Source of the DNA: Escherichia coli
GTDB taxonomy: Bacteria; Pseudomonadota; Gammaproteobacteria; Enterobacterales; Enterobacteriaceae
Direction: 5' to 3' (one strand)
Length of the DNA stretch: 64,000 bases
Assembly (NCBI RefSeq): GCF_030013205.1
Contig: NZ_CP122648.1
Shown in pieces: positions 49,288 through 49,809 of this stretch (position 1 is the first letter of the stretch; each line of letters starts with the position of its first letter). The notes below the pieces were generated by a model. It was not told the DNA's origin and made no database searches. It saw nothing but the letters and a program-made list of their open reading frames with translations. Position numbers and translations under genes: made by a program.

Positions 49288-49809
49288 GTAAGCGACTCGT
49301 CAGAACCGTATTGATATTTACTGAGAGCTCAGATCAACTTTCCAGGGCAACAGATCGCGTAACGGAAGCTGCCTGCTGGGCTCATGCCCGCCGAAAGATC
49401 CACGATGTGCACGTCCGCATCCCGTCAGCACTGACGGAAGAAGCCCTGGAGCAGATCGGTCAGTTGTACGCCATAGAGGCGGATATAAGGGGAATGCCGG
49501 CAGAGCAGCGGCTTGCTGAACGTCAGCGAAAAACGAAACCGCTGTTGAAATCCCTGGAAAGCTGGTTGCGTGAAAAGATGAAGACCCTGTTCTTCGGCTC
49601 TGGCCATGGTGGTGAGCGGGGAGCGCTACTGTACAGCCTGATCGGGACGTGCAAACTGAATGACGTGGATCCAGAAAGCTACCTTCGCCATGTGCCTGGC
49701 GTCATAGCAGACTGGCCGGTCAACCGGGTCAGCGAACTGCTTCCGTGGCGCATAGCACTGCCAGCTGAATAACACATCCCCGTCAATACGGCCCTCGCTG
49801 TACGCTTAC
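49288..49809. mobile_element. IS66-family deletion derivative (about 0.5 kb) carrying only the 3' end of tnpC
   Basis: GTAAGCG-type termini at both ends (gtaagcgactcgtcagaaccg at left; ...cgctgtacgcttac at right) flanking a TnpC C-terminal coding fragment. Confidence 0.55.
49311..49772 (+). pseudogene. IS66-family transposase TnpC, C-terminal fragment
   Basis: 153-aa ORF ...[14 protein letters not shown]...[13 protein letters not shown], typical of the IS66 TnpC C-terminus. Confidence 0.7.

Follow-up and report, generated by a model that had tools for sequence, protein, structure and literature searches.

At positions 49288–49809 of the window (the whole 64-kb stretch of Escherichia coli DNA that was analysed), a segment of 522 bp begins with GTAAGCG at 49288 and finishes with the reverse complement of this heptamer at 49809, raising the question of whether it is a miniature transposon of the IS66 family or the debris of larger insertion sequences (ISs). 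An earlier note on this DNA had proposed the former, a single IS66 element that was internally deleted, had kept both of its ends, and was potentially mobilisable in trans. The segment lies in a variable chromosomal region between nanCMS and fecIRA, in a window that has near-identical counterparts in strain K_EC180 and 13 further isolates from pigs. The local order consists of JAB/RadC-like, antirestriction, DUF932, and DUF905 genes (all on the minus strand; the remnant of a CP4-like island), the 522-bp segment, a phytase-like esterase gene (minus strand), IS3-family debris, and fecI. The segment is very probably a non-functional deletion scar made of two fused right-hand ends that belong to different IS66-family ISs and now face each other. 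It is ordinary IS debris at the edge of a genomic-island deletion.

Composition of the 522-bp segment

The GTAAGCG heptamer occurs 12 times on both strands of the 64 kb, which is about the chance level, and the case for IS termini must therefore rest on homology to the ends of real elements. A repeat search placed the inverted-repeat arms at 49288–49314 and 49783–49809 (27 nt each, 70% complementary). IS66-family insertions are flanked by an 8-bp target-site duplication (TSD), and the boundaries of the reference ISs were validated through these duplications, all of which were perfect in the reference copies (GATACAAA for ISEc8, TTTTCAGT for the ISCro1-family element, and GCATATCT for the ISEc22-family element). 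Two of the references share an espP-bearing plasmid (L002 3161–8360), where ISEc8 (3161–5603, with GATACAAA on each side) and the ISCro1-family element (5662–8360, 2699 bp, with TTTTCAGT on both sides; TnpC WP_000381395.1) are arranged tail to tail with 58 bp between them. The name ‘ISCro1-family’ follows PGAP and is a family-level label only; the ‘ISCro1’ in EC958 was sized at 2,824 bp (PMC8764528), compared to 2699 bp for the L002 element.

Relative to these references, the segment is composed of 74 bp from the IRR end of the ISCro1-family element (49288–49361) and 448 bp from the 3′ end of ISEc8 (49362–49809). The left part is inverted (minus strand) and identical at 74/74 positions to the TSD-bounded element of L002 (5662–5735) and to the copy in L006 (5256–5329). 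It includes the IRR with its terminus (about 49288–49314, minus strand) and the last ~14 codons and the stop codon of tnpC (49318–49361, minus strand), with the homology ending abruptly at 49361, such that only 74 of the 2699 bp are left in the window. The right part (plus strand) extends from ISEc8 position 1843 to the right terminus and is 99.1–100% identical to the TSD-bounded ISEc8 copies of L002 and L006 over 49360–49809, in two blocks. Its IRR (49783–49809, minus strand, with the terminus at 49809) is identical to the L002 ISEc8 IRR that ends at 5603 beside GATACAAA. The GTAAGCG-type termini described in the earlier note are thus present and both match validated IS66-family ends, including the right end, an exact ISEc8 IRR, where the note had seen its own reading as open to refutation.

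The two blocks of ISEc8 homology (49360–49590 and 49586–49809) overlap at CCTGT (49586–49590, plus strand), a 5-bp direct repeat in intact ISEc8 and the junction of a 153-bp tnpC deletion that is in frame and removes 51 codons. What is left of tnpC is a pseudogene fragment (49359–49772, plus strand; tblastn match 49359–49769) with 137 TnpC-derived codons, equivalent to residues 325–461 of a TnpC already without the 51 internal residues, and the Pfam matches comprise only positions 144–222 of 284 in the DDE_Tnp_IS66 profile plus IS66_C. In the PGAP annotation, the ISEc8 part is already listed as a pseudogene of an IS66-family transposase (L001 6072–6485; ‘IS66 family transposase, incomplete, missing N-terminus’). 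A mechanical open reading frame with a TTG start (49311–49772) spans 153 aa, the first 17 codons of which run antisense through the ISCro1 remnant and are not TnpC. The earlier statement that the segment encodes only the C-terminal 153 aa of TnpC was right in that only a 3′ fragment of the gene is present, but 137 of the 153 residues are derived from TnpC according to tblastn. Judged from its sequence, the fragment cannot be a transposase.

No tnpA or tnpB homology was detected by tblastn in or near the segment, and the 64-kb window contains no other IS66-family DNA. Members of the IS66 family are reportedly defined by tnpA, tnpB, and a full-length DDE tnpC between their ends. Measured against an autonomous element, the segment has no tnpA or tnpB, a partial tnpC, and no TSD, as the flanking octamers are unequal (GCATATCT on the left and TTTTGTTC on the right), which agrees with the earlier report that no matching 8-bp direct repeat is present. 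Measured against a miniature IS or MITE of a single parent, it has no IRL and IRR pair from one element and does not occur at multiple loci.

Left and right identity of the termini

Six reference ends (the first 27–39 nt) were compared, from ISEc8, the ISCro1-family element, and the ISEc22-family element of L005. All three IRLs possess CCGTCTGG at positions 19–26, whereas the three IRRs of the same elements possess CCGTATTGA (positions 19–27), and both termini of the segment (2/2) carry the IRR-type CCGTATTGA. In its outermost 27 nt, the left end agrees with the ISCro1-family IRR at 27/27 positions but with the ISEc8 IRL at only 18/27, and an assignment of the left end to the ISEc8 IRL was rejected on these values; the terminus comparison found ISEc8’s own IRL to be absent from the segment. 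Because the left end is the IRR of another element, and the parental TnpC proteins share only 52% identity, the segment is not one IS with an internal deletion, contrary to what had been proposed.

A non-autonomous miniature derivative, formed from one IS66 element by internal deletion and retaining two functional ends that could be mobilised in trans, would account for the IS66-type termini at both ends and for the identity between them (19/27), which is a usual value for the IRL/IRR pairs of natural family members (17–20 of 27), and E. coli is rich in both ISEc8 and ISCro1-family elements. Such a derivative is at odds with two ends that stem from different elements and are both of the IRR type, with the missing ISEc8 IRL, with the divergence of the parental TnpC proteins, and with the lack of a TSD. 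The likeness to MITE-like and internally deleted non-autonomous ISs extends to the short length, the terminal inverted repeats, and the absence of a functional transposase, but the segment differs from these in its two parents, its two right ends, the missing TSD, and its single-copy occurrence at one clonal locus. The IS-like appearance with terminal inverted repeats would arise only because two related right ends face each other, and some caution is warranted, as two facing IS ends of one family can mimic a miniature transposon. The distinction between CCGTCTGG and CCGTATTGA provides a simple IRL/IRR signature in this subgroup of the IS66 family, by which a true miniature IS can be separated from an end-to-end chimera.

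The deletion junction and its distribution

The ISEc8 part of the segment has a counterpart at the same chromosomal locus in other strains. In the ST131 strain JJ2434, strain 1428, and strain MLI104K2, ISEc8 tnpA-tnpB-tnpC is located directly upstream of the same phytase-like gene, and the tnpC of this copy is 1386 bp in length (1539 minus 153). Alignment of the window, JJ2434, and strain 1428 revealed that the 153-bp deletion and the right flank (TTTTGTTCGGACTG...) are shared, and the window remnant is identical to the JJ2434 copy at 449/450 positions. Compared to this fixed ISEc8-delta153 copy beside the phytase-like gene and fecI, the stretch at 49362–49809 has the same deletion, IRR, and right flank, but lacks ISEc8 1–1842, which includes the IRL, tnpA, tnpB, and the first 324 tnpC codons. 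A query that joined the delta153 junction, the IRR, and 91 bp of flank aligned without interruption in 2183 of the 5426 complete E. coli genomes (about 40%), and the right end of the segment is thus an old fixed insertion junction that has never moved. The fixed copy is also without a TSD (AAATAGTG and TTTTGTTC; L003 2154–2161 and 4451–4458), therefore the locus has a more complicated earlier history, and where this copy abuts an N-terminally truncated DUF6404 gene (window 49810–49889) it marks an older rearrangement. The DUF6404-family gene fragment in this ancient right flank (49812–49889, plus strand) was mapped by alignment from its annotation at L004 4453–4530, and plasmid DUF6404 genes match the flank at about 90%.

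Within the segment, the interior of the ISCro1-family element meets the interior of ISEc8 tnpC at a TA (49360–49361), where the ISCro1 homology ends at 49361 and the ISEc8 homology begins at 49360. The breakpoint contexts of the parents share only this TA, which identifies the junction as illegitimate with microhomology. Homologous recombination between the two tnpC genes was rejected on account of their opposite orientations, the non-homologous positions of the breakpoints, and the sharing of TA only. A transposase-mediated adjacent deletion was likewise rejected, as the internal junction is located at neither IS terminus.

The best comparator is strain MLI104K2, which represents the undeleted state (DUF905-IrmA-...-ISEc8). 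It has the same nanS′-HNH endonuclease context, and its DUF932 (WP_001234620.1) and DUF905 (WP_001119729.1) are identical to those in the window. Beyond DUF905, MLI104K2 possesses IrmA, an AIDA-repeat pseudogene, a GTPase gene interrupted by IS421, and YfjI, Gp2-like, and zinc-ribbon genes, followed by ISEc8-delta153, the phytase-like gene, and fecI. In alignment, window positions 48990–49289 correspond to L009 1–300 and positions from 49360 onward correspond to L009 14991 onward, with 14,692 bp of MLI104K2 replaced in the window by the 74-bp ISCro1 remnant. Strain JJ2434 has the same island in the same orientation, with cah, a GTPase gene, and more genes up to a Gp2-like gene and two zinc-ribbon genes between DUF905 and ISEc8. 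The suggestion in the earlier note that the segment marks a rearrangement breakpoint was correct. The neighbouring island gene, however, is not truncated at its 5′ end as the note had supposed; DUF905 is intact, and the loss of about 14.7 kb lies beyond it. Other IS-associated deletion and rearrangement scars of E. coli genomic islands, such as the CP4-like islands in the nanS-fec region, similarly have truncated IS fragments at the edge of the lost DNA and a pre-deletion state that is kept in relatives, and nothing essential sets the segment apart from these; its one peculiarity is the chance arrangement of the two fragments as facing, inverted IS66-type ends.

The history that would explain the scar has three steps. 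In the starting state, seen directly in the comparison of strains, an ISEc8 copy that already lacked 153 bp of tnpC was positioned beside the phytase-like esterase gene upstream of fecI. Subsequently, in an ancestor of the pig-associated lineage, an ISCro1-family element would have inserted in inverted orientation into GCATATCT at the DUF905 start codon, a step suggested by the precise junction between the terminus and its target. Finally, a single illegitimate recombination at TA would have connected ISEc8, at position 1843, to the ISCro1-family element at a point 74 bp in from its IRR end; the window contains this junction, the same-strand geometry of which fits a deletion. Lost in this event would have been the remainder of the ISCro1-family element (about 2.6 kb), island genes that total about 12.9 kb (IrmA, the AIDA/Ag43-like autotransporter, GTPase, YfjI, Gp2-like, and zinc-ribbon), and 1.84 kb from the 5′ side of ISEc8, with its IRL, tnpA, tnpB, and the N-terminal two-thirds of tnpC. 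A progenitor with a full ISCro1-family element beside DUF905 was found neither among the 5426 complete genomes nor in two metagenome pattern scans (0 matches), and so the insertion and the single-event nature of the recombination are steps that we infer.

The same chimeric scar could also have formed if its left part, the CP4-like module together with the ISCro1 end, had been imported from a paralogous island or another strain by recombination or translocation. Modules 100% identical to 47045–49287 are found elsewhere on the chromosome in many unrelated genomes, one in E2865 lies in the opposite orientation at a distance of about 40 kb from the ISEc8-delta153 locus, and the module in the window has a second breakpoint at 47045/6, all of which would suit an import. 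We nonetheless regard this origin as improbable, as the DUF905 and DUF932 alleles of the window recur unchanged at this locus in MLI104K2, with their orientation and the upstream nanS′-HNH-endonuclease context also shared, and both pieces of the ISCro1|ISEc8 junction have the same-strand arrangement of a deletion. With identical alleles present at the same locus in MLI104K2, an in-situ origin is the simpler account.

The distribution of the junction was determined using a 50-nt query with 26 nt on each side, for which neither parent is able to give a 28-nt seed. Exactly 14 of the 5426 complete E. coli genomes contain the chimeric junction at full coverage, in one place each, all chromosomal and at the same locus. 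All of these genomes (14/14) are from pigs, namely an ETEC series, two O139:H1 strains, and K_EC180. Two further matches were rejected: H41 (strain 1517k) is a non-colinear join, in which an ISCro1-family element is nested in ISEc8 tnpC (L006 3254–8310) within the 153-bp stretch that is deleted from the fixed chromosomal copy, and H185 covers only 30/50 nt. Identical miniature copies elsewhere, which the earlier note had recommended searching for, were not returned by the junction query in any of the 14 genomes. With one copy per genome, always at the same locus, there is no sign that the 522-bp unit ever transposed, and the proposed trans-mobilisation has no evidence in its favour. For past mobility, the reading as a miniature IS is already contradicted by this single-copy, single-locus occurrence and by a right junction that is ancient and fixed in 2183 genomes, and as a whole we consider it highly improbable, clearly more so than an imported left part. 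As a deletion scar, the segment documents that a CP4-like island lost about 14.7 kb, with an AIDA/Ag43-type autotransporter and IrmA among the missing genes, and it is of use as a clonal marker by which a pig-associated E. coli lineage (14 complete genomes) can be recognised. Beyond annotation hygiene, it matters little.

The DUF905 octamer and neighbouring insertion sequences

The DUF905 gene to the left of the segment (49050–49283, minus strand) is intact and encodes 77 aa (WP_001119729.1 in L001; Pfam PF06006, positions 2–68 of 70). The octamer GCATATCT (49280–49287), the target of the ISCro1-family element, overlaps its ATG (AGATATGC on the gene strand). The empty site reads GCATATCT|GTTTTCTCC in MLI104K2, with a variant GTTGCTCC in JJ2434, and consequently the ISCro1 terminus sits exactly after GCATATCT. 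In genomes with the empty site, the IrmA terminator hairpin is followed by an AGGAG Shine-Dalgarno sequence, which lies 8 nt ahead of the DUF905 ATG. The window has sequence of the IS end in its place (49284–49310 region), and DUF905 is therefore probably poorly translated. The parting of the start codon from its Shine-Dalgarno sequence would be a side effect of the proposed history.

The same octamer is occupied in other genomes by an ISEc22-family element of 2454 bp with a perfect TSD of GCATATCT (L005 3093–3100 and 5555–5562), and the ISEc22-family/DUF905 junction occurs in at most 169 genomes. The ISEc22-family element has its IRL beside DUF905, whereas the window lineage has the ISCro1-family IRR in that place, in the opposite orientation. 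A further match, H186, was considered as a candidate miniature ISEc22 but probably represents an unoccupied DUF905 site, with a copy of ISEc22 lying past IrmA. As two different members of the IS66 family occupy exactly the same 8 bp, in opposite orientations and in different lineages, it is conceivable, though we think it rather unlikely, that GCATATCT at the DUF905 start in CP4-like islands is a preferred target of the family; a separate speculation of the same tentative standing is that the IRR-IRR chimera may be recognisable by a resident transposase. To our knowledge, the IS66 family is not known for target specificity. If true, a preference for the octamer would amount to site- or structure-directed targeting in the IS66 family.

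Several other rearrangements and IS traces are present in the surroundings. At the second breakpoint (47045–47046), the 3′ side of the JAB/RadC gene adjoins part of a gene for a phosphorothioation-dependent restriction endonuclease, and the DUF987, YeeU, and CbtA genes that are usual for the CP4-like module are missing. The island has been hit repeatedly by IS66-family elements, among them a further element in MLI104K2 (L008 11118–12145; tnpA WP_000422741.1, tnpB, and a truncated tnpC) that truncates the antirestriction gene. An IS2/IS3-like terminal sequence (…TAGACTGGCCCCCTGAATCTCCAGAC) is located at about 41620 of the window, and a weak helix-turn-helix match to the IS66 TnpA query at 41782–41889 is probably an IS3-family orfA. 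A fragment of an IS3-family transposase lies between the phytase-like gene and fecI (51651–51824).
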